Source: Candidatus Saccharimonadota bacterium (lineage in GTDB: Bacteria; Patescibacteriota; Saccharimonadia; Saccharimonadales; SZUA-47). Taken from it: a stretch of 64,000 nucleotides of DNA. Shown here one piece after another: positions 114-61,083 of this stretch (position 1 is the first letter of the stretch; every line of letters starts with the position of its first letter). The stretch covers positions 257,449-321,448 of the forward strand of contig CP065013.1 in NCBI GenBank assembly GCA_016700315.1, given 5' to 3'. The position numbers and the translations under genes are program-made. The notes beneath the pieces are model-generated. The model saw only the letters and a program-made list of their open reading frames with translations, ran no database searches and was not told the DNA's origin.

Positions 114-155
114 CTCTAACCTCTAACCTCTAACCTCTAACCTCTAACCTCTAAC
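114..155. repeat. Perfect tandem heptamer array (CTCTAAC)x6, embedded in a longer 7-nt-periodic tract spanning 8-160
   Basis: Read directly. Six contiguous identical 7-nt units. Flanking sequence is also in 7-nt register (CCCTAGA CCCTAAT CCGTAGT CCCTAGC CCTAATC). Confidence 0.95.
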
Positions 156-228
156 CTAATTTTGTCTCTTCTATCAACTATAAACCCCCTCTGGCGCTTT
201 TGCGTCTACCCCTGTAGAATATCTACAA

Positions 229-6233: not shown

Positions 6234-6393
6234 CTTGTTTAAAGTATAGCATAAGCGTAAAAAGTCTACATCAGAGAGAATTAGTGTACTAAAAGGCTGT
6301 ACCACATTACTCAGTACAGCGAAACTAGCGGCTTCGTTACCCCGTACCCCGTACCTTGTACAGCACTTACTCGGTAGCTCGCCTAACCAACCC

Positions 6394-19300: not shown

Positions 19301-20173
19301 CTACATCTCTCTAGCATTTATTCTAGAAATCGCCCCAGCCCGCACAGGGTAAAGATTCGCATCGCTGTATGGGTCTACACTGATGTTTGCTTTGAGTCCG
19401 TTTTGGACAGGCGCTGGGTGAGCTTCGTCCCATTTAGCCCTAGCATAGGCATCTAATGCGCCTGCTTGGCTAGAATTTAGTTCATCTTCTATGCCCGTAA
19501 AGCGAAACATCTGGCCGTAGTTGGTGTCTATACCTTCTTTATCAGAAGCAGGTTCAATAAACTTTAGGTCGCAGCGCTTAGCAATCGCTACCGCTTCTGG
19601 GCTGCCATCTACCTTAACCACATCACCTTCTTTGTTTCGGTGGTACATCTTAGTAAACAAACTCTTAGCTAGCTCTGGTTCGCCCTGCTGTCCGGCACAT
19701 AGTTCGGCTACTCTTTCTTCAAAGGTTGGGGCTTGGGTGGTGGTAGTGGTGTTAGCGGAGTTCTTCTTGGTGGATTTAGTTGTGCCGCCAGAGCTATTGC
19801 CATTGTTGCTTCCGCCGCCGTTGCCGCCGTTATTACCACCGCCATTGTTACCACCGCCTTGTGGCTTAGTGGTTGTGGTGCGAGGTTTGGTGGTGGAGGT
19901 GCGAGGGCGGGTGGTGGAGGTGCAGACTAGTATAATACCGCCATACTCATCCGTCGTCTGCACACACCCCTCAACCCGTTTCTCTGGTTGTAGTACTTGT
20001 GGGGCTTCTTGAGCTATTGCTTGAGCAGTCGGCACACCGAGTATTGGCGTTAGCACCATACCGGCTCTCAATAACAAGCCTTTTGGTTTCTTAGATTTGC
20101 TAACTTCAGCCATAGGCATAGCACCCATCTCTGGGGATCGTGATAATTCGTTGCTTCTGTTGCTTGCACTCAT
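19301..20173 (-). CDS. Secreted protein with T/P/R and G/N low-complexity linker, unknown C-terminal domain
   Basis: Hydrophobic N-terminal segment, a TSTTRPRTSTTKPRTTTTKPQGGGNNGGGNNGGNGGGSNNG linker, and a good AAGGAG Shine-Dalgarno sequence upstream of the start. Confidence 0.65.
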   Translation of the reverse strand: MSASNRSNELSRSPEMGAMPMAEVSKSKKPKGLLLRAGMVLTPILGVPTAQAIAQEAPQVLQPEKRVEGCVQTTDEYGGIILVCTSTTRPRTSTTKPRTTTTKPQGGGNNGGGNNGGNGGGSNNGNSSGGTTKSTKKNSANTTTTTQAPTFEERVAELCAGQQGEPELAKSLFTKMYHRNKEGDVVKVDGSPEAVAIAKRCDLKFIEPASDKEGIDTNYGQMFRFTGIEDELNSSQAGALDAYARAKWDEAHPAPVQNGLKANISVDPYSDANLYPVRAGAISRINAREM

Positions 20174-23775: not shown

Positions 23776-24514
23776 GTCAACATAAAAACCACGACCAAAG
23801 GTTTTTATGTTGACTTATAGGGGTAAGACTACTAACATGCGGGTATTATGGGCAGCGGGAATGCGAGAAAGATTAAGCCGAGCAGGCTCAGACCAAGGAG
23901 CCCTAGCAAGGAGCTTACTTCTAAAATAATTGAGTCCGTCTTGAGAGCTAGCGTTTTAGCTGGTTTTACCGCTTCTGCACTACTGATACCAAACTCTCCT
24001 ATCGCCCTAGAGAAACCAGTTAAATTCTTCCTAGATAAATTGGATCAGAAAGAAAAAGAGCGCCAAATCCGCCGCGTAATTACTGAGATGAAACGGCAAA
24101 AAATCGTCAAAGGAAGCTACGAACATGGTCTTGAGATAACCAATAAAGGACGCGAGCGACTAGCAAAACTAGATTACGACAAACTCGAGATATCTGAACC
24201 ACCTTCTTGGGATAAAAAATGGCGCATAGTACTCTTCGACATTCCTTTTAACAAAGATGAGAAACGTAGAGATTTGTCAGAGAAACTAAAACTAACTGGG
24301 TTTCAGTTACTCCAGCTTAGCGTATGGGTGCATCCGTACCCCTGCCGCGATGAACTAAACAAAATATGTGAGCACTTAGGTGTTGCTAAGTATGTTACCC
24401 TCATAGAAACTGCCCACATTGACCACGAAGAATTACTAAAAAAGCGCTTCAAAAATCTCAAATTACAGTAGTGTGTCAACATAAAAACCTTTGGTCGTGG
24501 TTTTTATGTCGTAC
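23776..24514. mobile_element. Single-gene cassette bounded by 35-bp perfect terminal inverted repeats, each itself a hairpin
   Basis: Left GTCAACATAAAAACC-ACGACCAAA-GGTTTTTATGTTGAC (23776-23814). Right GTCAACATAAAAACC-TTTGGTCGT-GGTTTTTATGTCGTAC (24475-24514). The loops are reverse complements, and 23780-23814 is the exact reverse complement of 24475-24509. Confidence 0.7.
23848..24471 (+). CDS. PaaX-like regulator (winged helix plus Cas2/VapD-fold C-terminal domain)
   Basis: WDKKWRIVLFDIPFNKDEKRRDLSEKLKLTGFQLLQLSVWVHP matches the PaaX C-terminal pattern (W..W.lv.f.ipe..R..R..L...GF..l..svWv.P). A wHTH-like region lies upstream. Confidence 0.65.
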   Translation: MGSGNARKIKPSRLRPRSPSKELTSKIIESVLRASVLAGFTASALLIPNSPIALEKPVKFFLDKLDQKEKERQIRRVITEMKRQKIVKGSYEHGLEITNKGRERLAKLDYDKLEISEPPSWDKKWRIVLFDIPFNKDEKRRDLSEKLKLTGFQLLQLSVWVHPYPCRDELNKICEHLGVAKYVTLIETAHIDHEELLKKRFKNLKLQ

Positions 24515-25215: not shown

Positions 25216-25311
25216 CGCCTCATTATACCTCACACTTGATACAAACTCTTTATTCGCAGGTGCTGTGACAGCTAAGCCATACAAAAAAGCGCGCAACGTT
25301 AAATTCGCAAA

Positions 25312-25716
25312 TTAGATTTTAGCAACAGGTAGTTCGGGCACTCTGCCAAAATCTGAATCTAGAGAAAGCAATAAACAATCGTACTCGAGTGTCAGAGCCG
25401 CGATCCACATATCGTTGGTATTGATTGGTGTGCCCTGCTGCTTAAGTTTTTTGAATATAGCGGCGAAGAGTTTGGTGGTTTTGTCACTGATCGTAACTGT
25501 ATTAACATTCGGCATGTCTAGAAACTTCTGGAGGAGTGCTTCGTTTTCTTTCGGCCTGTTTCCAAGTGCGAAGCCAGCTCTTAGCTCGCCAACGACAACA
25601 AGCGGCACTAAAACTTGCGAATCTGGCCGAAAATATTCACGCAAGCGGCCATCGCCTCTGTTGAATGCCGAATAAGCACTAGTATCAATCAGCAGTTTCA
25701 CTTTGCTCACTGCCAT
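25312..25716 (-). CDS. vapC: PIN-domain toxin VapC
   Basis: LLIDTSAYSAF N-terminal acidic motif with distal D residues, 134 aa, and a 10-nt overlap with the upstream antitoxin. Confidence 0.85.
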   Translation of the reverse strand: MAVSKVKLLIDTSAYSAFNRGDGRLREYFRPDSQVLVPLVVVGELRAGFALGNRPKENEALLQKFLDMPNVNTVTISDKTTKLFAAIFKKLKQQGTPINTNDMWIAALTLEYDCLLLSLDSDFGRVPELPVAKI

Positions 25717-25958
25717 AACTTTTTATCTATTTTAGACAAATCAGCAATCGCTTCGTCAAATGACCCATCAAGTGTGTTAGCTCCAAAAAGCCAATCGAAC
25801 CCAGTCTCAGCTTGAATCTGCGTAGTTCCGAAAGTTTGCATAGTTAACAAATCTACTACTGTCTGGTTAAAAGATTTTCCAGTTCTTTGAGAGCGCTTTT
25901 TTATAACCATGTCAACCGCTGGTGGTATATTCCTTATAGTGTATTGAATTTTACTCAT
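25707..25958 (-). CDS. vapB: VapB-type antitoxin (RHH/FitA-like)
   Basis: MSKIQYTIRNIPPAVDMVIKKRSQRTGKSFNQTVVDLL is a ribbon-helix-helix type N-terminus. Start moved to ATG 25956-25958. Confidence 0.75.
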   Translation of the reverse strand: MSKIQYTIRNIPPAVDMVIKKRSQRTGKSFNQTVVDLLTMQTFGTTQIQAETGFDWLFGANTLDGSFDEAIADLSKIDKKLWQ

Positions 25959-26026
25959 GTATACATTGTATGCAGTATATACACTTACGTCAATCCGCTG
26001 GATCAATACTGATGACTTACACGGCT

Positions 26027-26082
26027 CTTGATACTTTATCCCTGATACTTGATACTAGTTATTATGAGTTTACAGATTGGGA
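26027..26082 (+). repeat. 56-bp direct repeat, copy A: decayed duplicate of the ychF promoter-proximal region and first 6 codons
   Basis: CTTGATACTTTATCCCTGATACTTGATACTAGTTATTATGAGTTTACAGATTGGGA differs from copy B (28110-28165) at 3 of 56 positions. Confidence 0.92.
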
Positions 26083-26201
26083 CAGATACTGCGCAGCCCA
26101 ATTACCTTTTGTGCTAAGACTAACTATGCTACCGACGGATAGAGGTGATCGTAGCTATTCCAACGAACGTACTGTTAAGACAAATGAAGAGTTACAGACC
26201 T

Positions 26202-28088
26202 CTAGCTCTTAGGCTTACTGCGTAAAGCTTTCGTGATAGTACCGAAATTCTTTGCTAGGTCGTAATCACTCCGCCCAGCAACTATTGCCTCATAAATAGC
26301 GTCATCACCAGCAAGCTTTTTAAGCCTGTTATTGAGCTGTCTCATAATTGTTTTAGGATCTTTGTCATGTACACCATTCTGACTTGCGAAGTGACTAAGC
26401 TCTTGAGCGTCAGCAGGACGCTCTGACGGGTTAAAGAGCGGTAGTGTTTCTGGACGTACTTCACGCTGTCGTGCACGAAATGCACCACTTTGCTCGGAGA
26501 GCTCTATGACTCGTTGCTCACCAACTGCGTCTAGCGCTAAAATCTGTAGTTCGTAATCACTAAAAATTAGATTTTCGGCACTTCTCCAGCCAGGTATAGG
26601 TACTGTCCTTTTACCGTCGTAGTCAGCAATTATTACCTTAACACGATCTTGCTCAAAACCACCGCTTGCTTTGTCTAAAGCAAAAAGTGTAGCTACTTCT
26701 ACAGGATCCAGCTTTCCTCTCAGTTGATAAGCGATACTTAGAATATCCTCTGGCAAATGATAATCTTCAGGCATTTCTGGCAATTGTGCGGCTGCCTTGA
26801 GATATTCAGTTGTAGCGTTTTCACGGACACCTTCACGCCCAGACTTACTGAGCCGGGGATTTACAGAGGTACTTCTGATTAACCTTTGAACGTAGTCGGT
26901 CAGTCCAACAAATGCTTTTGTCTTTACCCTACTCGTTTCGAACAATTGCATAAGCTGTCCGACAGCTCGGACTTCTGTTCGGTCTAAATGTTCAATTGCT
27001 GAACCTGCGTCCTCACCTAGTGCCCACGTTGCATCAATAATGGTAGACACTGACGATCCATCTTTGTCTACAGTTACAAATGTATTCCAAGCGTGTCCAC
27101 TTCCTTCACCGGTGCTCGTACTAAAACCGTCTGCTCGTGAGTCAGCATAACCCGCACCGTCTTTACCTCCGCCGTAAACAGCATAAGTATTATTTAGCAT
27201 ACTTAGTTCGGTTTGTGTTGCCTTGAGAGCTTCAAATACAGCCTTTACGTTTGAGGCTACGTTTCTGCAAACGCCGTTACCCTTCCAATTAGGGTCTTTC
27301 CTGCTAGCTATGCCTTCTCTTAGTAACTCAGAAGTGGTTGACTGGTCAGCTCTTGATAAATCTTTTAAGCCAATGTCCTCGTAGGTGTACCGTGAGACAC
27401 TTTGAACAAACGCAGCACTAAGCTTTACCGCTTGTTCGGGAGTCAAGTGACTTAATGAACGAATCTTTAGACTCTCTACTAACTGTTGACCGCTTTTGTC
27501 GTTTTGGAGGTAGTGAGCAAGGACAGTACGCAACTCCGTTTGCCAGCCTTCTTCCTCTACTGTATTGCGATAGGTGTGGTCGCCATTGCCACAGTCAGTT
27601 AGTGACGCTTCCAAGTAATCAGGCACAGGGTACGTTTCGCGGCTTGGTGCTACTTTAGGATTGTAGTGCTCAAGGGTCGTAAAACTAGCAAATGCTGTGT
27701 CTGTCATCTCAATGTGAGCTAAAGAACGTGTATGAACCGTCTCCAATGTACGCATTCGTTCCAGGCTATCGTGCAACGCTAACTCAACGTCCTTACCAGC
27801 ACCTACTACTTCTTTTTTTGTTCTACCTTCCTGTGAACCTGAGCCAATAATAATTCTGTGCTCACCCTCAGGGGTCCTGCCTATGAACTGTTCATCAGCG
27901 CGATAAAAATGCCCTGCCGATACTACAACACCTGATAAACCAACACGTCCAATAGCAGGTATGGCACCACTTTGTTCGGTTGGTAATTGATCTGGGCTTA
28001 TTAGAGGCTTTTGTTCTAGTACTGCGGTCATAGTTTTTATTTTTGCTTTACTCTCTGTTATCTTATCAAATAACTTGACAAATGTCAA
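26202..28088 (-). CDS. Transglutaminase-like (Cys-His-Asp) domain protein, 628 aa
   Basis: NGVCRNVASNVKAVFEAL (nucleophile Cys), GSGHAWNTFVTV (His) and IIDATW (Asp) occur in the order and spacing of the transglutaminase-core cysteine protease fold. No signal peptide seen. Confidence 0.65.
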   Translation of the reverse strand: MTFVKLFDKITESKAKIKTMTAVLEQKPLISPDQLPTEQSGAIPAIGRVGLSGVVVSAGHFYRADEQFIGRTPEGEHRIIIGSGSQEGRTKKEVVGAGKDVELALHDSLERMRTLETVHTRSLAHIEMTDTAFASFTTLEHYNPKVAPSRETYPVPDYLEASLTDCGNGDHTYRNTVEEEGWQTELRTVLAHYLQNDKSGQQLVESLKIRSLSHLTPEQAVKLSAAFVQSVSRYTYEDIGLKDLSRADQSTTSELLREGIASRKDPNWKGNGVCRNVASNVKAVFEALKATQTELSMLNNTYAVYGGGKDGAGYADSRADGFSTSTGEGSGHAWNTFVTVDKDGSSVSTIIDATWALGEDAGSAIEHLDRTEVRAVGQLMQLFETSRVKTKAFVGLTDYVQRLIRSTSVNPRLSKSGREGVRENATTEYLKAAAQLPEMPEDYHLPEDILSIAYQLRGKLDPVEVATLFALDKASGGFEQDRVKVIIADYDGKRTVPIPGWRSAENLIFSDYELQILALDAVGEQRVIELSEQSGAFRARQREVRPETLPLFNPSERPADAQELSHFASQNGVHDKDPKTIMRQLNNRLKKLAGDDAIYEAIVAGRSDYDLAKNFGTITKALRSKPKS

Positions 28089-28109
28089 TATGCTTATGTA
28101 TTAAACATA

Positions 28110-28165
28110 CTTGATACTTTATCCCTCATACTTGATACTAGTTATTATGAGTTTATCGATTGGGA
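28110..28165 (+). repeat. 56-bp direct repeat, copy B: functional ychF 5' region
   Basis: See copy A. Contains the heptamer array GATACTT TATCCCT CATACTT GATACTA and the ychF ATG at 28147. Confidence 0.92.
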
Positions 28166-29238
28166 TTGTTGGGCTGCCGAATGTCGGCAAGAGCACTCTT
28201 TTTAATGCGCTGACAGATGCGAATGCGCTGGCGGCTAATTACCCTTTTGCCACGATTGAACCAAACACCGGCATTGTACCGGTACCAGACGAGCGCCTAG
28301 GCAAGCTGGCCGATATGTACAAAAGTAAGAAAATTGTGCCCGCCACAGTAACTTTTGTAGATATTGCGGGGCTAGTTGAAGGTGCAAGTAAAGGCGAAGG
28401 CCTGGGCAATCAGTTCTTGAGTCATATACGTGCTTGTGATGCAATCCTACAGGTTGTGAGAGCCTTTGAAAGTGGCGATGTAATCAGAAGCGATAGTTCA
28501 CGAGACCCAGAACACGACATAGATGTAGTCGCTACTGAGTTAGTGCTAGCTGACCTGCAAACAGTCGAAAAACGCCTGCCCCGTATTCAAAAAGAGGCCA
28601 AAGCCAATCTAAAATTAAAACCCATGCTAGATTACATAGAGACGGTACACGGAATACTTGACTCAGGCAAGCCTCTTTTTTCAGAGTCAGGAGTCATGAG
28701 CCATGAGCTAAGAGGTTGGCTCCAAAAAGAACTGCAGCTTATGACTTTAAAGCCGATTCTGTATCTATTTAACATCGATGACGACGCACTAAGTAGCAAC
28801 GAGCTGAAAACTAAGCTTCGTAACATCGTCACACCCGCCCCCGCTCTTTTTGTTAGCGCCAAGCTAGAAGATGAGCTGCGTGGACTAGATGATATCGACA
28901 GGGCTGAAATGCTGGCAAGCTACGGCGCTAGTGAGTCTGGGCTCAACCAAGTTATCCACTCGGCCTATGACCTACTGGGGCTGCAAAGCTACTTAACCGC
29001 TGGCGAGCAAGAAGTCCGCGCCTGGACCATAAAAAAGGGTTGGACGGCACCACAAGCAGCCGGCGTAATACATGGCGACTTCGAAAGAGGCTTCATAGCT
29101 GCACAAATCGTAGACTATAACGACCTAGTTGCGGCCGGCAGCGAGCAAGCAGCCAAGTCGGCTGGCAAGGTTCGCACCGAAGGCAAAACCTACCAGATGC
29201 GTGAGGGCGATGTGGTAGAGTTCAGGTTCAACGTCTAG
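28147..29238 (+). CDS. ychF: Ribosome-binding ATPase YchF (Obg family)
   Basis: MSLSIGIVGLPNVGKSTLFNALT G1 motif, DIAGLVEGASKGEGLGN, and C-terminal GDFERGFIAAQIV. Start moved to the ATG at 28147. Confidence 0.93.
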   Translation: MSLSIGIVGLPNVGKSTLFNALTDANALAANYPFATIEPNTGIVPVPDERLGKLADMYKSKKIVPATVTFVDIAGLVEGASKGEGLGNQFLSHIRACDAILQVVRAFESGDVIRSDSSRDPEHDIDVVATELVLADLQTVEKRLPRIQKEAKANLKLKPMLDYIETVHGILDSGKPLFSESGVMSHELRGWLQKELQLMTLKPILYLFNIDDDALSSNELKTKLRNIVTPAPALFVSAKLEDELRGLDDIDRAEMLASYGASESGLNQVIHSAYDLLGLQSYLTAGEQEVRAWTIKKGWTAPQAAGVIHGDFERGFIAAQIVDYNDLVAAGSEQAAKSAGKVRTEGKTYQMREGDVVEFRFNV

Positions 29239-30470: not shown

Positions 30471-31244
30471 TTAACGCAAGCTTTTTAGCATATAAAATCG
30501 CTCGACGTTTCCTTTGCTACCGGCAAGTCCAGAATCAGCTTTGTCAACTATTTTGAACAAATTTTGTACCCAGCTTTCGAAGTCGTGAATAATTTCGCGA
30601 CGAACTTTGCTATTTTTGATTACACCCCTGTTAATTTGCTCCTTGCCTGCTTCAAACTGAGGCTTGAGCATAGCTATGATTAATGTTTTGTTATTAACGA
30701 ATAAAGAGATGTGAGGTAGTATTTTTCGCATCGAAATAAAGCTCACGTCAATCACTACTATGTCTGGTACTTCGGAGAGTACTACTCTTCGTTCCTCGTT
30801 CTTCGTTCCTCGTTCTATTTGGCTACTTTGTAGCCAAATCTCACGAATATCAGTCTTTTCGTGCAGTTCAATTTTGGGATTTCCTAACAGTGTTGGGTGA
30901 AGTTGATCCGTGCCAACATCAACTGCAACAACTTTACTAGCACCATTTTGCAGTGCAAAATCCGTGAAGCCTCCCGTGCTACTGCCCACGTCCAAAACGA
31001 CTTTATTTGTAAAATCTAGCCCTAGCTCTCTCGCTACAGAAGCCAGCTTCTCGCCTGCTCGTGATACGTACTTTCCTGCTGTAGCTGAAACTACAATTTT
31101 GTCACTAGCTGAAACCTCGAAAGCCGGTTTTGTAATAACATTACCGTTAACTCGCACCGTGCCGCGCTTAATCAAATCCTCGGCCCTAGACCGCGACTGA
31201 GTCTTGCCTGACAAAAATAAAACTTGATCAAGCCGCCGCTTCAT
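30471..31244 (-). CDS. tlyA: TlyA-family 16S/23S rRNA (cytidine-2'-O)-methyltransferase
   Basis: N-terminal S4 domain (RLDQVLFLSGKTQSRSRAEDLIKRGTVRVNG) and FtsJ-type SAM motif VLDVGSSTGGFTD. Confidence 0.88.
   Translation of the reverse strand: MKRRLDQVLFLSGKTQSRSRAEDLIKRGTVRVNGNVITKPAFEVSASDKIVVSATAGKYVSRAGEKLASVARELGLDFTNKVVLDVGSSTGGFTDFALQNGASKVVAVDVGTDQLHPTLLGNPKIELHEKTDIREIWLQSSQIERGTKNEERRVVLSEVPDIVVIDVSFISMRKILPHISLFVNNKTLIIAMLKPQFEAGKEQINRGVIKNSKVRREIIHDFESWVQNLFKIVDKADSGLAGSKGNVERFYMLKSLR
30787..30839. repeat. Intragenic module inside tlyA: heptamer array (CTTCGTT CCTCGTT)x2 plus adjacent 9-bp-stem hairpin ATTTGGCTA-CTTTG-TAGCCAAAT
   Basis: Read directly. Translated in frame as WLQSSQIERGTKNEERRVV. 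Confidence 0.9.
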
Positions 31245-33169: not shown

Positions 33170-33543
33170 TTAAAGAATCTTTTCACCGTTAACCTTTATG
33201 AGTTTTATTAAAGCCGCTTTTAGTTCTTCTACTTTTGATATTAACTCTGCTTCCAAAACGCTAGAAAGGTAGTTTGTTTTTTTGATATTCCTATCTGAGC
33301 TTCTAGTTCAAATAATGAGCCGAGTGCATGTCGATAAAACTGCTCTTTCTCTCTGGCACTTCTTCTGCCAAAGCCTTCTGCGATATTAGATGGCAAAGAT
33401 ACAGCAGCTCGTCTCATTTGCGAAATCAAGCCAAAAACTTCTTCTTTAGGAAAAGCCGAAGTAACTTGGTAGACACTCAGACAAATAGACTCCGAAATCT
33501 GCCAAACCCTTAAGTCTTTAAAGGACTTTATCGTCGTACTCAT
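33170..33543 (-). pseudogene. Four-helix-bundle protein gene with a -1 frameshift in an A7 run (or homopolymer sequencing error), between ssb and rpsR
   Basis: LRVWQISESI...SQMRRAAVSLPSNIAEGFGRRS...ALGSLFELEAQ is the family signature. After the A7 run (T7 at 33277-33283 on the plus strand) the +1 frame stays open for 37 codons (KTNYLSSVLEAELISKVEELKAALIKLIKVNGEKIL-stop at 33170-33172), restoring a typical ~124-aa length. Confidence 0.6.
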
Positions 33544-33585
33544 TCTTCGTAAATCCTTAATCGTTAATCTTTAATCAACTAAGGC

Positions 33586-34179: not shown

Positions 34180-34497
34180 CTAGCTGTTGCGTACTGACAC
34201 TATCTTCTCTGCCTTGGCATCAAACTTCCATTCAGCACATGTACCTTTACCTATTCTACGGCCACAAATAAGGACTGCGCCAAAAAAAATTCTCTGTTCG
34301 CCTATGGATTCGTATATTAAACCCCTTACTTCGGGAGTAATGCCGCCGATGCGTATTGCCTCAAGTTCATCTGCAATAGAAACCTCAGCAGCAGCTTCAA
34401 GCAGTTTACCTGCAGCTGCTTTGTAGACGTCGTCGCTCCACCCTTCATCCCTGCCGTTTCTGGTGCATCTAGGGCATACTTCAGGTAGACAGTTCAT
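34180..34497 (-). CDS. Hypothetical 105-aa Cys-containing protein inserted between rpsF and ssb
   Basis: ATGA overlap with the rpsF stop. CPRC motif near the N-terminus. No family recognised. Confidence 0.45.
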   Translation of the reverse strand: MNCLPEVCPRCTRNGRDEGWSDDVYKAAAGKLLEAAAEVSIADELEAIRIGGITPEVRGLIYESIGEQRIFFGAVLICGRRIGKGTCAEWKFDAKAEKIVSVRNS

Positions 34498-34880
34498 TAC
34501 TCTTCGTCCTTGTCGTCTTCTTCGTCGTCAGCCGAGGTGCGCTTGGCAGCTTTTTCGGCTTTTTCGGCTTTCAAAGCTTCTGCTTTTGCAATCGCCTTTA
34601 GGTCAGGCTTGGTCAAAAGAAATCTTATAACTTCTTCTGTAATGTTAAGCTGATCGTTAATAGCCTTTACGCCTTCTGCCGGAAGCTCTAGCGTGTAGAA
34701 CACGTAGACGGCATGGTTAACGCCTTTGATAGTGTAAGCCATCTTACGCTTACCCCAGTTATCGGTAGCCTTGATTTCACCCTTAACACTTTTGACTAGT
34801 TTCTCGATTTTGCCGGTAGCTTTGTCGAGATCTGCCTCAAGATCAGGGTGAATTAACACCGCTAATTCGTATTGTGACAT
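34497..34880 (-). CDS. rpsF: 30S ribosomal protein S6 with acidic C-terminal tail
   Basis: MSQYELAVLIHPDLEADLDK...WGKRKMAYTIKGVNHAVYVFYTLE. Confidence 0.92.
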   Translation of the reverse strand: MSQYELAVLIHPDLEADLDKATGKIEKLVKSVKGEIKATDNWGKRKMAYTIKGVNHAVYVFYTLELPAEGVKAINDQLNITEEVIRFLLTKPDLKAIAKAEALKAEKAEKAAKRTSADDEEDDKDEE

Positions 34881-34910
34881 TCGTCACTCCTTTCTTCTGC
34901 GAAGAAACGA

Positions 34911-34988
34911 GTTAGTAGTTAGTAGTTGGTAGTTGGTAGTTAGTAGCCTCATGAGCTACCATCTACCATCTACCTTCTACCTTCTACC
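34911..34988 (-). promoter_or_regulatory. Long imperfect hairpin in the rpsF leader built from two inverted heptamer arrays
   Basis: GTTAGTAGTTAGTAGTTGGTAGTTGGTAGTTAGTAGC (34911-47), a 7-nt loop, then GCTACCATCTACCATCTACCTTCTACCTTCTACC (34955-88). Hand pairing gives runs of 5-7 bp separated by mismatches roughly once per heptamer unit. Confidence 0.6.
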
Positions 34989-35114
34989 GACCTGTAACTT
35001 CTTTCGGTTTCTAGGTTAGGCGCACCAGAGGCCCCAACCAAGAAGTTAATTAATATTAAATATAGTATAAAGTATTATGAATAAAGTATCAAGTGCTAAG
35101 TGCTAACAAATGCG

Positions 35115-37331
35115 TTAGATTTCGCGTTCAAAGTCAGTTAGCGGCTCATCTTCAGGTGAAACCACGGCAGACTCATCGCCGTCAGTAGTTGCCCCGCCAA
35201 AAACATCATCGAGCGAGCTAACCAACACTTCGCGCGGCTTACTGCCATCGGCATGGCCAACAATGCCAGCTTCTTCCATCTCATCGATTAGCCTCGAGGC
35301 ACGACCATAGCCTATACGCAGTCTACGCTGTAGGAGTGAGGTTGATGCCTTACGATTTTCTATGACTACTCGCACGGCATCGCGGAACATATCATCATCA
35401 CTATCACTGTTGCCACCGCCGGCTGGCTCAGGAACTATGCCGCCTTTACCATTAAGAACAACTGGCATACTCACCACTTCGTCATCATACTGAGGTGGTC
35501 GCTGCATACGCAGAAAATCTGTCACTTTGTTGATTTCATCACCCATGATCAAAGCACCCTGAACGCGGATTGGTTTGGGCATGTCAGCTGTTACATAAAG
35601 CATATCACCAGTACCCAAAAGTTTTTCAGCCCCAACTTGGTCGAGTATTATTCTACTTTCAACCTGCCCGGCAACTGTAAAGGCAATGCGAGCCGGTACG
35701 TTAGCTTTAATTAGTCCAGTTATAACATCTACACGCGGACTCTGTGTTGCCAAAACTAAGTGAATACCAGCAGCGCGTGCTTTTTGGGCAATTCGGACAA
35801 TTAAAGCCTCAACTTCACGGCCAGCAAGCATCATGAGATCAGCCATTTCGTCTACAACGATCACGATGTAAGGCATACCAGCTTCGGCCTGCCTATCATT
35901 GTACTCAGCAATTGAGCGCGCGCCGTGCTCTTTAAACTGACGAAGACGCCTCTCCATCTCCGCAACTGCCCACTTGAGAGCGCTAATACACTTCTCGGGC
36001 TCAGTAATTACAGGTGTTAAAAGGTGTGGAATGTCGTTATAGGATGTTAGCTCAACCTGTTTTGGATCGACCAGAATAAGTTTGAGATCAGACGGAGAAT
36101 TACGATACAGCAAACTAACCAGAAGAGTATTAATCATGACCGACTTACCAGAACCAGTCTGACCAGCTATCAAAAGATGAGGCATGCGATCGAGAGAACC
36201 AACAATAGGTACCCCTGCAATATCCTTGCCAACCGCTAAACCGAGCGGCTGTTGGTTACTTTTCCAAGCGTCGCTATCGATTACGCCAGCCAGACGAACT
36301 GTCGCTGGTTTGACGTTTGGCACTTCTATGCCAACAGCTCGCTTGCCAGGAATAGGTGCTTCCATACGAATGCTGCGTGCCGCCAAATCAAGAGCTAGGT
36401 TATCATCAAGCGCAGTAATCTTTGACAGCTTAATACCTTGAGGTGGTTTGAGCGTAAACTGTGTTACACGTGGACCAACATTCACTTCCTCCATTTCTAC
36501 ATCAATACTAAAGTTACTAAGTGTGCTCTTGATAATTTCGGCGTTAGTCTCATAGTCACCAGCGTCGGCCTTGTCCTGCTTTTGATTAAGTAGATTCAAG
36601 CTTGGGAATTGCCAGTTTGGATCGCTTTTCTCTGTTAGAGCTTCGTGGTCTTCTTGCGGGGTTAGTGCAGCAGCGGCATTCTTGACCGGATTTTTTGAAA
36701 CTGAATTTCGCTCAGCTTGGCTATGATGCTCTACAGGCACACCTTCGTTTAATTTGAAGTGAGGCTCGCGTGTTTTTAGCTCATCTAAATCTGTGTCACC
36801 TTCTTGACGACGTAGGCTAAGTAATTTATCGAACAATCCACGGACCGAAACATCAAAAGTCCAACAAAATGCTAGAAACGTTAGGACAAAAAACACAATG
36901 CTCGTAGGTACCTTGTCTAAGAGTGCCAATAGTGCGTTGCCTATAGTTCTACCGACAGCCCCGCCGTAGCCACCCGCCCAAGGCAGTTCAGACGAGTCAC
37001 GGGTAGCAAACCCTGTGTGCAACCATGCGCTGGCAACGATTACAAAACTTGCCATGCTAGCAATGTTTCTGAAAGGTACAACTTTTTCTTCATGTTTGAA
37101 CTTGTGCACCGCCCAGTAAAAACACGCTAAGGGAGCAAAGTAGCCCGCTAGGCCAAAAGCATCGTAAACCCAACCAAAAAGTTTAACCGGCAATGACCCG
37201 CCAGTACCAAAGCCTCCTAGTAGCAGAAGGAGCCCCAAAACTACCAAAAAAACGCCGCGCATAACACGCCAAAACATACTTGGCTCTTTTGGAGCTTGTT
37301 TCTTGCTTGTTCGTTTTTTTCTTTTTGCCAT
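35115..37331 (-). CDS. ftsK: DNA translocase FtsK/SpoIIIE
   Basis: N-terminal TM helices, Walker A GQTGSGKSVMIN, VVDEMADLMM, and the C-terminal gamma winged helix LLQRRLRIGYGRASRLIDEMEEAGIVG. Confidence 0.93.
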   Translation of the reverse strand: MAKRKKRTSKKQAPKEPSMFWRVMRGVFLVVLGLLLLLGGFGTGGSLPVKLFGWVYDAFGLAGYFAPLACFYWAVHKFKHEEKVVPFRNIASMASFVIVASAWLHTGFATRDSSELPWAGGYGGAVGRTIGNALLALLDKVPTSIVFFVLTFLAFCWTFDVSVRGLFDKLLSLRRQEGDTDLDELKTREPHFKLNEGVPVEHHSQAERNSVSKNPVKNAAAALTPQEDHEALTEKSDPNWQFPSLNLLNQKQDKADAGDYETNAEIIKSTLSNFSIDVEMEEVNVGPRVTQFTLKPPQGIKLSKITALDDNLALDLAARSIRMEAPIPGKRAVGIEVPNVKPATVRLAGVIDSDAWKSNQQPLGLAVGKDIAGVPIVGSLDRMPHLLIAGQTGSGKSVMINTLLVSLLYRNSPSDLKLILVDPKQVELTSYNDIPHLLTPVITEPEKCISALKWAVAEMERRLRQFKEHGARSIAEYNDRQAEAGMPYIVIVVDEMADLMMLAGREVEALIVRIAQKARAAGIHLVLATQSPRVDVITGLIKANVPARIAFTVAGQVESRIILDQVGAEKLLGTGDMLYVTADMPKPIRVQGALIMGDEINKVTDFLRMQRPPQYDDEVVSMPVVLNGKGGIVPEPAGGGNSDSDDDMFRDAVRVVIENRKASTSLLQRRLRIGYGRASRLIDEMEEAGIVGHADGSKPREVLVSSLDDVFGGATTDGDESAVVSPEDEPLTDFEREI

Positions 37332-43675: not shown

Positions 43676-44383
43676 CTAGATATCTTCAATAGTTTTAGCA
43701 TCTTTTACTTCATAGCCTCCGATTTTCGTACGTCGAAGCTCAAGACAGTAAGCACCCGTACCAAGTTCTTTGCCAATATCTTCCGCAAGGGTACGAATGT
43801 ATGTGCCGCTGGAGACATGGGCACGTACTTTTATTTCTGGCCAGACGTACTCAAGCAGCTCCAGGCTATAAATCGTTACTTGGCGTGGTTTCAGTTCGAC
43901 TTTTTTGCCCGCCCTAGCAAGCTCATAAGCCTTTTTGCCGTTAACCTTGATAGCCGAATACTGCGGCGGCACCTGCGTGATCTCACCAACAAACTTAGCT
44001 AGCGCCTTTTGTACCTCTTCAGTAGATGGTAGATGGTAGTTAGTAGTTGGAGTGGCTTCTCTTCGTTCATCGTTCAGCATCCCTCGTTCTGTGATTTCCC
44101 CTTCCGGATCACCGGTCGTCGAGACAGCCCCAAGTCGAAAAGTCGCCTCATAGACCTTATCTTGCTTCATAAACTCGTCCTGACGCTTCGTGGCACTGCC
44201 AATCAGGATTATCAGCAGCCCCGTAGCAAAAGGATCGAGCGTGCCACTGTGGCCTACTTTTAGTTTCTGTTTACCGTTTACTGAGGACTGAGGACTATTT
44301 TTTCGTAAATCAGAGCGGATTTTGGCCACCACATCAAAACTAGTCCACCCCGATGGTTTATCTATCAGAATTACTTGATCCAT
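43676..44383 (-). CDS. truB: tRNA pseudouridine(55) synthase
   Basis: KVGHSGTLDPFATGLLIILIG catalytic Asp motif, and QVPPQYSAIKVNGKKAYELAR. Confidence 0.92.
   Translation of the reverse strand: MDQVILIDKPSGWTSFDVVAKIRSDLRKNSPQSSVNGKQKLKVGHSGTLDPFATGLLIILIGSATKRQDEFMKQDKVYEATFRLGAVSTTGDPEGEITERGMLNDERREATPTTNYHLPSTEEVQKALAKFVGEITQVPPQYSAIKVNGKKAYELARAGKKVELKPRQVTIYSLELLEYVWPEIKVRAHVSSGTYIRTLAEDIGKELGTGAYCLELRRTKIGGYEVKDAKTIEDI
44022..44088. repeat. Intragenic heptamer arrays inside truB: GTAGATG GTAGATG GTAGTTA GTAGTTG (44022-49) and CTTCGTT CATCGTT CAGCATC CCTCGTT (44061-88)
   Basis: Read directly. Translated in frame as ERGMLNDERREATPTTNYHLPST. The E. coli TruB sequence as I recall it is about 14 residues shorter here. 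Confidence 0.85.
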
Positions 44384-47248: not shown

Positions 47249-47632
47249 ATGCCAATTATCAAATCAGCCAAGAAGCGCGTCAAAGTTGCCCGTAAAGCTA
47301 CTGTCAGAAACGCTAAAACCAAGAAAAGCGTACGAGGTGCACTAAAGGCTTTTGCCAGCGCAGTGTCTGGCAAAAAAGCCGTTTCATCTAGCCGCAGCAA
47401 GGCCCAAAGTGCCATCGACAAGGCAGTCAAAAAAGGTGTAATGAGCAAAAAGCGTGCAGCACGTAAAAAAAGCCAGCTGAGCAAATCCGCCAAAGCTAGC
47501 GGTGCCAAAGTTGAGAAGCGCTCTGCCCCAAAGAAAACTCAGCTCAAAAAAGCTAGCGTCAAGAAAGCCGCTCCAAAGAAATCTACAGCCAAAAAACCAG
47601 CTGCCAAAAAAGTTTCTGCAAAGAAAAAATAG
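47249..47632 (+). CDS. rpsT: 30S ribosomal protein S20 with Lys/Ala-rich C-terminal extension
   Basis: MPIIKSAKKRVKVARKATVRNAKTKKSVRGALKAF followed by a ~45-aa KKAAPKK-type tail. Confidence 0.9.
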   Translation: MPIIKSAKKRVKVARKATVRNAKTKKSVRGALKAFASAVSGKKAVSSSRSKAQSAIDKAVKKGVMSKKRAARKKSQLSKSAKASGAKVEKRSAPKKTQLKKASVKKAAPKKSTAKKPAAKKVSAKKK

Positions 47633-58374: not shown

Positions 58375-61083
58375 TCATAGCTCCCCCCATGTTTTACCGG
58401 TGGATATGTCTACACGCAGTTTTACGCCCAGCTCTGGATAAATATTTTCCATAGTCTGCTTCATCATTTTGCCAACCCGCTCAGCATCAGCTTCGGCACA
58501 TTCAACCAAAATACTGTCATGTATCTGCAATATCTGTCTCGGCTCTTCCTCGTTCCTCGTTCCTCGTTCCTCGTTCCAGTGTCTAAATTGGCTTTCTAAT
58601 TTAGACATTGCCATCTTGGTTATATCAGCAGCGCCTCCCTGAATTGGCATATTGATTGCGGCCCGCAAAGCTGCCTCACGTACGACAAAATTGCTGCTCC
58701 GAGCATCCGGCGTTGGGCGGCGACGTCCGAGCGGCGTCTCCACAAAACCTTTGTTTTTGGCTTGGTCACGAAAACGCTCCATCATTGCCTTCAGTTTGGG
58801 GCGCACCTCGAAGTATTTATCGATAAACTTTTTGGAATCGGCGTAGCTCATGCCCGTTCCTTCACTGAGTCCGTGAACACCTTGCCCATACAAAATACCG
58901 AAATTAACAGCTTTGGCCGCGTAGCGCATCTCTTTGCTGACTTCTTCGGGCTTGACACCTTGAACCAAAGCGGCCGTCTCGATATGAATGTCTCGATCAG
59001 AGTTAAACGACTCAATCATTGCTTGATCACCGCTCAGTGCCGCGGCAATGCGAAGCTCAAACTGACTGTAGTCGGCACTCACCAATACATTGCCAGGCTC
59101 GGCGATAAAGCCAGTTCTGATCTCTCGACCAATTTCGGTGCGGATAGGAATGTTCTGCAAGTTGGGATCGTTGCTACTAAGCCGGCCAGTTGCTGCGACC
59201 GTCAGCGCCAGTGTTGTATGTATACGATTGTTCTCATCTACCTGCTCTGGCAGCGTATCTACGTAGGTACTTTTGAGCTTTGTGTACTCACGATATTTCT
59301 CGATATCGTTGATGATCGGGTGAAGGTCTTTTAGTTTAGCGAGTACGTTACTGGCTGTGCTGAAGTGGCCAGCCTTCCCTTTCTTGCTTGCGATTGTAGG
59401 CAAGTTTAGCTTCACAAACAAAATATCACTCAGCTGGCTAGGACTTGAGATATTAAACTCTTGGTCGGCATAGCCATAAATTGTTTGTTCAATGTCACTA
59501 ATTTGATCTGTTAACTTGTCAGATAAAACCTTGAAAAAGCTTGGCTCAATCTTCACCCCAGTACGCTCAATTCGAGCTAAGACTGGTATCACTGGCCAGT
59601 CCACTTGCTCGGCCATTTTGATCAAACTTGTAACCTCGCTCATTTGCTCACCCTGTCGCTCAGCAAGCCCCCGGATCACAGCGCAGATTTCTGGTAGCTT
59701 AATTAGCGCTTCATCATCATCAATATTGTCGAGCTCACCAGCGTAGTTTAGATCCTCGCTCGCAAGCGCCGTAAGCGAAAAATCTCGCCTCAGAGAATTA
59801 ACAATAAATGCGCCAACTTGTGTGTCGTGGCTTACCTGCGGCAAGTTTTCTATCCCAAGCTCGAGTAAAATTTGAAAGATATTCTTTAAATCGTGCCCGG
59901 TAACGGCTTTGCCGTTTAGTAGTTGGTCGATGGTAGATGGTAGATGGGAATTAGCTACTGATTTTCTTAAATCAAAAATATAGCAATTTGTTTTGTCAGA
60001 TAGCGCCAAAACAGTTGGCTCGTGACCGTGCTTACCACTGCTGCGAGCAAAAATTACTACATCCCCTTCAAGCTGCAGCGATGACACTGCGGAGCTCTCC
60101 TGAACGTAGACAGGTGTCGGGGTTTTGAGATCGAGGATTGCCGCACTTATGTTTGACGAAAGGTCATTTGTCGATTCTGCAACTGCTACTTTGGACGAAT
60201 CACTACGCATTCCTTGTGGCAAGTTGCGCAGCAGGCTCCTGAACTCTAGGCGCTTTAGTATGCTTGCCAGCTCATTCGTATCTAGCTTATTTATGTCCAT
60301 TTGTTCAAGGTCCAGCTCGATTGGCGCATCTGCGTAAAGTCGAGCAATTTCTTTACTCATGTAGGCCGAATCTCGCCCCGCTTCAAGCTTTTTCTGTACT
60401 GCGCCCTTGGTGAGAGCAACATTCTCGTAAACACCATCGAGAGTTTTGTATTGTTTAAGTAGTTCAACCGCTGTTTTTTCACCAATGCCAGGAACACCGG
60501 GAATGTTGTCCGACGAATCGCCTTTTAGAGCTTTTAAGTCCAGAAATTGCTCAGGCTCGAGGCCGTATTTATCACGAAATTGTTCTGGCCGATAAAGCTC
60601 GATATTTGTTAGTCCTTTTTTGAGCGCATAGACATGGGTGTTCTCGCTAATGCACTGCAGTGCATCAAGATCACTGGTGATTAGCATTGTCTCTAACCCG
60701 GCGGCATCAGCTTTTTTAGCCAGGCCACACATAATATCGTCTGCCTCGTAATCATCGAGTTCGTATAGCGGCCAATTTAGTGCTCTTAGCAGCTCGTGAA
60801 GAATAGGAATTTGTACATAAAAGTCTGGCGGTGCCGGCTTTCGTCCTGCCTTGTAGTCTGGGTAGACGGCTAGTCGTTTTCGGATATTGGTTTTTGGTTT
60901 ATCCCAAGCTACACAAACATAATCTGGTTTGAGCCGCTTAATCAGCTCCAGCGCCATTGCTGCGAAGCCATAAACTCCCCCTGTTGGCGTCCCGTCGGCG
61001 GTCGAAAGCCCCGGCATCGCGTAATAGCCACGGTAAAAGACTGACTTTCCGTCGATAATCGCAAGTTTTTTTCTACTCTCCAT
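58375..61083 (-). CDS. polA: DNA polymerase I
   Basis: 5'-nuclease domain, DYSQFELRIAA (motif A), KAVNFGILYGQG (motif B) and QIHDSILVE (motif C). Confidence 0.94.
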   Translation of the reverse strand: MESRKKLAIIDGKSVFYRGYYAMPGLSTADGTPTGGVYGFAAMALELIKRLKPDYVCVAWDKPKTNIRKRLAVYPDYKAGRKPAPPDFYVQIPILHELLRALNWPLYELDDYEADDIMCGLAKKADAAGLETMLITSDLDALQCISENTHVYALKKGLTNIELYRPEQFRDKYGLEPEQFLDLKALKGDSSDNIPGVPGIGEKTAVELLKQYKTLDGVYENVALTKGAVQKKLEAGRDSAYMSKEIARLYADAPIELDLEQMDINKLDTNELASILKRLEFRSLLRNLPQGMRSDSSKVAVAESTNDLSSNISAAILDLKTPTPVYVQESSAVSSLQLEGDVVIFARSSGKHGHEPTVLALSDKTNCYIFDLRKSVANSHLPSTIDQLLNGKAVTGHDLKNIFQILLELGIENLPQVSHDTQVGAFIVNSLRRDFSLTALASEDLNYAGELDNIDDDEALIKLPEICAVIRGLAERQGEQMSEVTSLIKMAEQVDWPVIPVLARIERTGVKIEPSFFKVLSDKLTDQISDIEQTIYGYADQEFNISSPSQLSDILFVKLNLPTIASKKGKAGHFSTASNVLAKLKDLHPIINDIEKYREYTKLKSTYVDTLPEQVDENNRIHTTLALTVAATGRLSSNDPNLQNIPIRTEIGREIRTGFIAEPGNVLVSADYSQFELRIAAALSGDQAMIESFNSDRDIHIETAALVQGVKPEEVSKEMRYAAKAVNFGILYGQGVHGLSEGTGMSYADSKKFIDKYFEVRPKLKAMMERFRDQAKNKGFVETPLGRRRPTPDARSSNFVVREAALRAAINMPIQGGAADITKMAMSKLESQFRHWNEERGTRNEEEPRQILQIHDSILVECAEADAERVGKMMKQTMENIYPELGVKLRVDISTGKTWGEL
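58548..58607. repeat. Intragenic module inside polA: perfect (CCTCGTT)x4 plus adjacent 10-bp-stem hairpin TGTCTAAATT-GGCTTTCT-AATTTAGACA
   Basis: Read directly. Translated in frame as KLESQFRHWNEERGTRNEEEPRQ, just upstream of motif C. Confidence 0.92.
59917..59951. repeat. Second intragenic heptamer array in polA: TAGTAGT TGGTCGA TGGTAGA TGGTAGA TGGGAAT
   Basis: Read directly. Same unit family as the truB and rpsF-leader arrays. Translated as ANSHLPSTIDQLL. Confidence 0.85.

Follow-up and report, generated by a model that had tools for sequence, protein, structure and literature searches.

The question raised by this locus is how a perfect tandem repeat of a heptanucleotide came to be translated within a DNA polymerase I, directly ahead of a catalytic motif. 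The DNA analyzed, referred to here as the window, is a stretch of 64,000 nucleotides from a Candidatus Saccharimonadota bacterium (contig CP065013.1, positions 257,449 to 321,448 of the forward strand), and its polA gene (58375..61083, minus strand; 902 amino acids) is host to two arrays of 7-nt units. The first of these, a perfect (GAACGAG)x4 array on the minus strand (58576..58549), encodes NEERGTRNEE. We consider it reasonably likely that this segment is one of many heptanucleotide simple-sequence repeats which arose by replication misalignment near hairpins and were kept where the protein tolerates them; the best reading of the window arrays as a whole is that they belong to the known bacterial class of heptanucleotide long simple-sequence repeats (LSSRs).

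On the minus strand the array is preceded by a perfect hairpin with a 10-bp stem and an 8-nt loop (TGTCTAAATT/AGAAAGCC/AATTTAGACA; 58607..58580), the order being hairpin, CTG, four GAACGAG units and then GAAGAGCCGAGACAG. The strand reads in frame ATG TCT AAA TTA GAA AGC CAA TTT AGA CAC TGG AAC GAG GAA CGA GGA ACG AGG AAC GAG GAA GAG CCG AGA CAG; the hairpin encodes M-S-K-L-E-S-Q-F-R-H, the C-terminal part of the helix preceding motif C, and hairpin and array together encode SKLESQFRHWNEERGTRNEEE, directly ahead of PRQILQIHDSILVE (motif C), with MAMSKLESQFRHWNEERGTRNEEEPRQILQIHDSILVE contained in the open reading frame (ORF) translation. Tandem Repeats Finder (TRF) reports the array at 58546-58577 with 4.6 copies of period 7 and 100% matches. 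A sequence-only reading of the window had placed a hairpin and four GAACGAG units immediately before motif C, and its coordinates, sequence and translation were confirmed by sequence reading, TRF and ORF translation. An assembly artefact was ruled out, as the identical sequence is found in independent NCBI, JGI, ENA and Logan assemblies.

The host gene encodes a family A DNA polymerase, with 5' nuclease and DNA_pol_A domains and the HD of motif C following the insert; its close homologues carry PF02739 (5_3_exonuc_N), PF01367 (5_3_exonuc) and PF00476 (DNA_pol_A). Alignment of the C-terminal region to Taq Pol I (E = 5e-38) places QIHDS opposite QVHDE and leaves 10 extra residues in the window protein between the post-fingers helix and the motif C strand. 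Against the closest Saccharibacteria lacking an insert the protein gains 11 residues, a net 33 nt accounted for by the array, and the spacing from ADxTK to QIHD, 23-26 residues in most Saccharibacteria, is 34 in the window. The segment is therefore not conserved Pol I sequence, in keeping with its treatment as an insert in the earlier reading. In the AlphaFold model of the protein (mean pLDDT, the predicted local distance difference test score, 87) a helix at residues 799-840 spans the hairpin- and array-coded residues and is followed by a loop (841-848) and a strand (849-854), with block pLDDT values of 91 and 81 at this segment. The product would be a short extension of the pre-motif C helix together with a loop, tolerated rather than functional. 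The second polA array, CCATCTA CCATCTA CCATCGA CCAACTA (59919..59947, minus strand; hotspot 2 of polA), encodes HLPSTIDQLL and adjoins a 6-bp hairpin, AACGGC/AAA/GCCGTT, whose arms lie at 59902-59907 and 59911-59916.

Period-7 arrays are specifically and strongly over-represented in the window, and most of them lie between genes. A strict score recovers 13 such arrays, where Markov shuffles lead one to expect 0.2, and none of period 4, 5, 6 or 8. TRF lists more than 20 with many different units, and the window total is about 25; on a crude ORF map, 15 of the 25 fall in the roughly 14% of the DNA that is non-coding. The 14-mer GAACGAGGAACGAG, allowing up to two mismatches, has 9 matches in the window against 0.25 expected. 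Units include CTCTAAC x6, TGTCTCT, GAGCCCT, TTTAGAA, CTTGATA, GAGTCAN, the GAACGAR family and the CTACCAW/CCATCTA family. The GAACGAR copies in polA, tlyA and truB are three of these roughly 25 heptamer arrays, a wider excess that the sequence-only reading missed, along with the second array of polA and the other two of truB. In-frame genic arrays number seven (two in polA, one in tlyA, three in truB and one in ychF). Three further arrays of the 25, at 6338, 28107 and 49454, map inside ORFs in questionable N-terminal extensions; at 6338 the doubtful extension was checked, and a likelier downstream start leaves the array outside the gene, and the other two are so classed by resemblance.

The longest perfect array of the window, (CTCTAAC)x6.3 at 114..157, is intergenic; a degenerate TCCCTAG/ACCCTAA array leads into it (60-157 region), about 70 nt before tRNA-Arg(CCT) at 229-303. 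Two inverted arrays, GGTAGAW x5 and CTACYAA x5, occupy the 5' leader of rpsF (34910..34988, minus strand), and their units are of the family seen in the CCATCTA arrays of polA and truB. Together they form a periodic hairpin built of 5-bp helices and small internal loops (-51.6 kcal/mol, z = -7.8). In the surrounding region (34885-35000, minus strand, upstream of rpsF at 34497-34880) the ribosome-binding site GGAG is paired within a second hairpin after the array. Public assemblies include five short-read contigs that begin exactly within the leader array, which indicates that the array breaks assemblies.

The genic arrays stand in frame at poorly constrained positions, where they add short, mostly hydrophilic peptides and leave catalytic motifs untouched. 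In tlyA, the array (GAACGAG GAACGAA)x2 (30786..30816, minus strand) encodes ERGTKNEERR within IERGTKNEERR, and a hairpin 1 nt away (ATTTGGCTAC/AAAG/GTAGCCAAAT; 30817..30839, minus strand; fold z = -4.8) encodes IWLQSSQI. The truB gene has three arrays, all on the minus strand: a degenerate GAACGAR array, GAACGAG GGATGCT GAACGAT GAACGAA (44062..44089), encoding ERGMLNDER within ERGMLNDERRE; a CCATCTA/CTAACTA array (44022..44050), encoding PTTNYHLPST and sharing the unit family of the second polA array; and AGTCCTC x2.4 (44280..44296), encoding SPQSSV, which lies among 12 residues that have no counterpart in solved TruB structures. The host ORFs are intact and the in-frame inserts occupy alignment gaps relative to solved homologues: TlyA LQSSQIERGTKNEERRVV sits in a 12-15-residue gap against 3hp7 and 7s0s, and TruB RGMLNDERREATPTTNYH and KNSPQSSVNGKQKL sit in gaps against 1sgv and 1r3f. 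The ychF array, GAGTCAG GAGTCAT GAGCCAT GAGC (28684..28708, plus strand), is also in frame and shows no clear net insertion, which rules out the idea that every coding array is a net insertion. The peptides that the earlier reading assigned to tlyA and truB, and its account of a tlyA hairpin with a different stem followed by the array, agree with our own reading of the sequence. Its statement that three essential genes carry the same repeat in the same sense orientation holds for the repeat and the orientation; 'essential' is overstated for tlyA and truB, and both genes are dispensable in model bacteria.

Inserts of hairpin and array recur, with differing units, at the same permissive polA and tlyA sites in the Saccharibacteria sequences that we compared with the window (loci numbered with the prefix L). 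All polA relatives are Candidatus Saccharibacteria, the best species-level match having 72% amino-acid identity. In 1.42 Mb from 80 related genomes there are 24 period-7 arrays against 2, 2, 4, 13 and 6 at periods 5, 6, 8, 9 and 10, and in 82 polA genes there are 23 at period 7 against 3, 3, 12, 7, 6 and 9 at periods 6, 8, 9, 10, 11 and 12. Array density is 2.0 per 10 kb in the window and 0.17 per 10 kb in the relatives. Nearly all of the polA arrays are found at residues about 295-299, 377-387 or 834-840, with units that vary by species; in the AlphaFold model the two sites other than that at motif C correspond to a disordered linker (296-316, pLDDT <50) and to a segment with pLDDT 73. At the motif C site about 63 of the 82 orthologues have no insert, and in 12 of the 19 that do, a lag of 7 gives the best self-match. 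The inserts include GAACGAA x4 followed by inverted CCGTTCA x3 (L051), CCCACTC/CTCACTC (L013), CAGGTTA (L046), AGCTCAC/AGCTAAA (L023) and AAGAGTT (L001). In a neighbour-joining tree the insert-bearing polA lineages are dispersed and often adjoin insert-free sisters, implying many gains, many losses, or both.

In L051, the nearest insert-bearing species, the insert (L051:12455-12600) consists of a first hairpin, GAACGAA x4 paired with the inverted CCGTTCA x3, and a second hairpin; with a folding energy of -48.7 kcal/mol (z = -6.1), it lengthens the protein by 29 residues ahead of motif C. An insert at the same Pol I site in L029 (L029:6580-6735) is non-heptameric, with a 9-bp hairpin followed by DNA encoding SCHPELVEGSNQISRQARNDK; it resembles the translated product of another palindromic repeat family, presumably one present in many environmental genomes.

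A similar pattern was observed for TlyA. Measured from the GNPKIEL motif, directly ahead of TDIR, as far as DVSFIS, the segment has 33-35 residues in 38 of 120 Saccharibacteria proteins and 40-80 in about 83. DNA was compared for four of these relatives: L213 has GTCTGGC/tgc/GCCAGAC and then (GAGACAA)x3-4, L215 has GTTTGGC/cac/GCCAAAC and then about seven GAGCAAW-type units, L212 has (GAGACAW)x4 with a decayed stem, and L214 has (GAGGGAA)x4 and no stem.

The arrays are associated with hairpins at their edges. Of 37 arrays in the window and 80 loci, 8 are accompanied by a perfect stem of 7 bp or more no farther than 12 nt from the array edge, against 1.7% of random positions, and the hairpin-linked arrays start 0-3 nt from the stem base. 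The window has 14 different perfect hairpins of 9 bp or more, and two of these are the coding hairpins that adjoin GAACGAR arrays. At the motif C site, the best stems of insert-free polA genes are 3-6 bp, and 12 of 18 insert-bearing genes have stems of 6-10 bp directly 5' of the array. The idea that the polA hairpin was carried in by the insertion was ruled out, as the array makes up the whole net insertion and codons of the native helix (K-L-Q..Q-F-D) form part of the stem. Two pairs of sisters, L019/L023 and L045/L046, show the 3' arm (CTGGAT) in place before any insert, in the insert-free member, with the 5' arm remodelled to match it. In tlyA, part of the hairpin may have been inserted.

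The orientation of the coding arrays can be explained by selection at the level of the peptide. In the sense direction, GAACGAG gives ERGTRNE in every phase, which is fully hydrophilic; among 2340 oriented heptamer classes, no more than 120 code exclusively for hydrophilic or small residues. The antisense gives LVPRSSF, which is stop-free but hydrophobic, and the CCATCTA family has a stop when read in antisense. The sequence-only reading had noted that the unit has no stop codon in any sense frame, which is correct; as an argument about orientation it is weak, because the antisense is stop-free too, and stop avoidance alone cannot explain the sense orientation. Moreover, polA, tlyA and truB all lie on the minus strand, the leading strand by GC skew, and gene orientation is thus inseparable from replication orientation here.

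By comparison of closely related strains, the arrays appear stable. The 90% Pol I cluster contains 17 sequences, of which QQS65220.1 matches the window protein at every residue; the eight full-length variants, which are 97-100% identical, all have 902 amino acids and an unchanged insert peptide apart from one E838V, and four fragments agree. The inverted arrays of the rpsF leader have equal unit numbers in six strains, with one point difference, and a base-by-base comparison with one strain (96-99% nucleotide identity, about 35 kb, about 10 arrays) found no 7-nt indel. The comparison between strains that the earlier reading had proposed as a check thus gave no unit-number change in the polA variants, the rpsF leader or the 35 kb, and the arrays are stable on this timescale rather than phase-variable tracts.

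These observations are consistent with a mechanism in which the nascent strand would slip backward by 7 nt during replication or repair to give an array; stalling of the polymerase where a hairpin begins would favour such slippage. Either intrastrand template switching (quasi-palindrome correction) or structural selection might keep the perfect, co-varying arms of the hairpin matched. Purifying selection would then remove arrays that shift the frame, introduce stops or disturb the fold, and the survivors would be stop-free units of hydrophilic coding content, in sense orientation and in few loops. The proposal that the segment is mobile or slippage-generated and tolerated as surface loops therefore keeps its slippage-type origin and its permissive sites; it does not keep a mobile element like those of Rickettsia, since only the 7-nt unit is held in common and the stems differ.

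Repeats of this general kind are known from other bacteria, among them the STRR heptamers, which have a specific consensus in heterocystous cyanobacteria and form part of the LSSR class. LSSRs are runs, longer than expected by chance, of 5-11-nt units arranged head to tail. The window has such runs (4.6 perfect copies; 13 arrays against 0.2), a predominance of unit length 7 in the window, the relatives and the polA genes, and the intergenic enrichment of such repeats. According to PMC4679880 and PMC4692102, heptamers are the most abundant LSSRs in many bacteria and polymerase slippage has been proposed (Mrazek 2007, cited therein); a slippage related to the polymerase footprint has been proposed and never shown, and examples include GGGAATC in Xanthomonas, GGGGAYT in Nostoc and TAACTGA in Beggiatoaceae. 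As there described, these repeats share with ours the 7-nt excess, the mostly intergenic position, some inverted stem-loop pairs, genome-specific families and an unexplained function. The arrays of the window differ from that account in their host from the candidate phyla radiation (CPR), in the many units within one genome, in their in-frame translation in housekeeping enzymes, in the statistical tie to an adjoining perfect hairpin, and in that the same protein loops are hit in many species. Our literature search found nothing relevant on heptamer or simple-sequence repeats in Saccharibacteria or Patescibacteria, or on STRR, and heptamer arrays of this kind are apparently undescribed for CPR bacteria.

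The tandem repeats of Borgs offer a second comparison, and when genic their unit lengths are reportedly divisible by three. They too originate independently in and between genes and yield new low-complexity peptide segments, whereas the arrays described here have a 7-nt unit, are stable between strains and reside in a bacterial chromosome; Borg repeats are described as rapidly evolving, recently formed and creating disordered protein regions (PMC9879509). A metagenome scan for (GAACGAR)3 returned at least 120 contigs with GC contents of 0.30-0.75, from many unrelated organisms that were mostly of high GC, in which the unit was usually embedded in other heptamer arrays, and such arrays are accordingly widespread; no other locus of this species was among the matches listed.

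Several points weigh against an origin by local slippage. Ongoing slippage is suggested by the form of the repeats, and the length polymorphism between strains that slippage would produce was not seen in polA, the rpsF leader or the 35 kb compared. Local slippage leaves unexplained why units recur at unlinked loci of one genome, such as GAACGAR in polA, tlyA and truB and CTACCAW in polA, truB and the rpsF leader, and why, among the relatives, L051 polA has three occurrences of GAACGAA and L053 two of AGTCTCG. Nor does it give an account of the preference for 7 nt. A strong adjacent hairpin is present at only about one fifth of the arrays, and the expectation that arrays lie on the side of the hairpin reached first by the lagging strand (by GC skew) is fitted by 5 of 9, which gives it no support. 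Finally, stem changes that are compensated and alter amino acids could, on sequence comparison, mean selection on a functional nucleic-acid structure.

This last point leads to the alternative that survives best, which we regard as unlikely: that hairpin and array form a functional element of mRNA or single-stranded DNA, acting as a pause, processing, protection or protein-binding site, with the peptide as a by-product. Between the window and L051 the polA stem is in the same register, and 4 of its 10 pairs have changed, all of them compensated on both arms and all altering amino acids (SKL..QFRH to IKL..QFDQ). In tlyA, the stems of L213 and L215 have a TGGC/GCCA core in common with the window stem and differ from it by compensated pairs, one pair being C-G in L213 and T-A in L215. 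The polA hairpin is present only where the array is present, the close spacing of arrays to stem bases fits such an element, and the inverted arrays of the rpsF leader and of L051 polA form very stable periodic hairpins (z = -7.8 and -6.1). By contrast, loops, stems and units have no motif in common across loci, a strong hairpin adjoins only 8 of 37 arrays, and the host genes and positions are functionally unlike. Searching the window with Rfam at gathering thresholds gave tRNA as the sole match, and the polA segment as a whole is weakly structured (z = -1.7). Compensated changes can also be produced without selection by template switching from arm to arm, the process of quasi-palindrome mutagenesis.

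Improbable, in our estimate, is a dedicated process at hairpin bases, in the form of an enzyme or polymerase mode that would write 7-nt units from a genome-specific template, or else an RNA or single-stranded DNA element that functions within housekeeping genes across Saccharibacteria and is conserved there through covariation. Dedicated writing from such a template would explain the recurrence of unit families at unlinked loci.

A small mobile or copy-and-paste element inserting in frame, resembling Rickettsia palindromic elements (RPEs) or miniature inverted-repeat transposable elements (MITEs), is quite improbable. RPEs are about 100-150 bp long, have a conserved consensus and spread as copies; reportedly, as described by Ogata and colleagues in 2000, they are palindromic repeats in frame in protein genes, housekeeping genes included, and tolerated at the protein surface. 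Like RPEs, the segments described here are nucleotide-level repeats of palindromic character that lie in frame in coding genes without disrupting them, and an element of this type would suit the presence of one 7-nt unit in three genes in the same orientation, the order of hairpin and then array, the dispersal of insert-bearing polA lineages next to insert-free sisters, and the genome-specific unit families. Nevertheless, the copies are alike only in the GAACGAR unit, and their stems (TGTCTAAATT in polA, ATTTGGCTAC in tlyA), loops and flanks differ, leaving no whole-element consensus of the RPE kind; the hairpins are locus-specific and the insert is a tandem array. Reading of the flanks of the polA, tlyA and truB copies revealed no terminal inverted repeats or target duplications. 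In polA the array alone is the net insertion, the hairpin overlapping native helix codons and its 3' arm pre-existing in the two sister pairs; the same site carries different units in different species, and most arrays have quite different units.

The view that charged flexible extensions were selected as adaptive features of Pol I, TlyA and TruB, for example for interactions of an episymbiotic lifestyle, we hold to be very improbable. The peptide is identical in 12 strain variants bar one E-to-V change, AlphaFold predicts a confident helix extension (pLDDT 81-91), and some insert is present at the TlyA site in about 83 of 120 proteins. Strains with 96-99% nucleotide identity would, however, be expected to conserve the peptide in any case; different species carry unrelated peptides at the site, and about 63 of 82 polA orthologues do without the insert. 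Furthermore, the three genes share near-identical nucleotides and not synonymous variants, which argues that the thing shared is DNA and not peptide.

Contingency switches that turn genes on and off by unit gain and loss are barely tenable and largely refuted by the absence of length change between strains in polA, the rpsF leader and the 35 kb: heptanucleotide tracts in coding DNA are a known switch, as in neuO of E. coli K1, where 3-53 units vary between and within strains and translation is full-length only at unit numbers divisible by three (PMC13001214), and some window arrays, such as CTTGATA, lie in promoter-like regions, but despite the likeness of a translated 7-nt repeat in which three units make one 7-residue period and the frame is kept at suitable lengths only, the arrays here have low unit counts (3-5 units in the comparison with neuO, 3-6 overall), do not vary in number across strains in about 10 arrays to switch the frame, leave all full-length polA variants at 902 residues and reside in housekeeping genes.

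Other features of the window and its relatives were recorded alongside the arrays. Between ssb and rpsR in the rpsF operon lies a gene of 100 amino acids for a PF05635 '23S rRNA-intervening sequence protein' (33241-33543, minus strand), and a heptamer array (33547-33576) occupies the 42-nt gap upstream of it. A 2.9-kb segment (25246-28147) encoding a PIN-domain protein, a 99-aa ORF and a 628-aa protein without a Pfam match is replaced by 26 nt in L082, a strain with 96-99% identity. A block of about 50 nt, duplicated at 26027 and 28107, combines CTTGATA heptamers with stretches similar to the -35 and -10 boxes of promoters; heptamer arrays of differing units (CTTGCTA, TGTAAAT, CTTGATA) at L011:4897, L048:2380 and L071:5229 and at 26027 and 28107 of the window stand directly upstream of a conserved gene starting MDAVAE, and in several genomes these upstream arrays contain TTG-type hexamers resembling -35 boxes. 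FtsK (35115-37331) is called at 738 amino acids here and in one strain and at 720 in two others (L082 and L083 comparison). Three intergenic copies of a perfect palindrome family (ACATAAAAACC...GGTTTTTATGT, stems of 11-16 bp) are located at 2077-2112, 23776-23814 and 24479-24509; these long palindromes are probably bidirectional terminators or a repeat resembling repetitive extragenic palindromes (REP). Coding repeats of longer period, comprising a 45-nt unit x2.2 (lysine- and alanine-rich) and GGT-rich units of 9, 15 and 21 nt, occur at 47528-47627 and 19814-19923 and are unrelated to the heptamers.

An excess of 7-nt repeats in bacteria has been noted since 2007 without a mechanism, and the Saccharibacteria data add three handles that make the mechanism question testable: arrays tend to start at the base of perfect hairpins, the same few protein loops receive different units in many lineages, and unit families occur at unlinked loci yet are stable between strains. 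For the reduced genomes of CPR bacteria, the heptamer process contributes genuine length differences to core enzymes (Pol I, TlyA and TruB), and this variation matters for alignment, phylogeny and annotation of these lineages.

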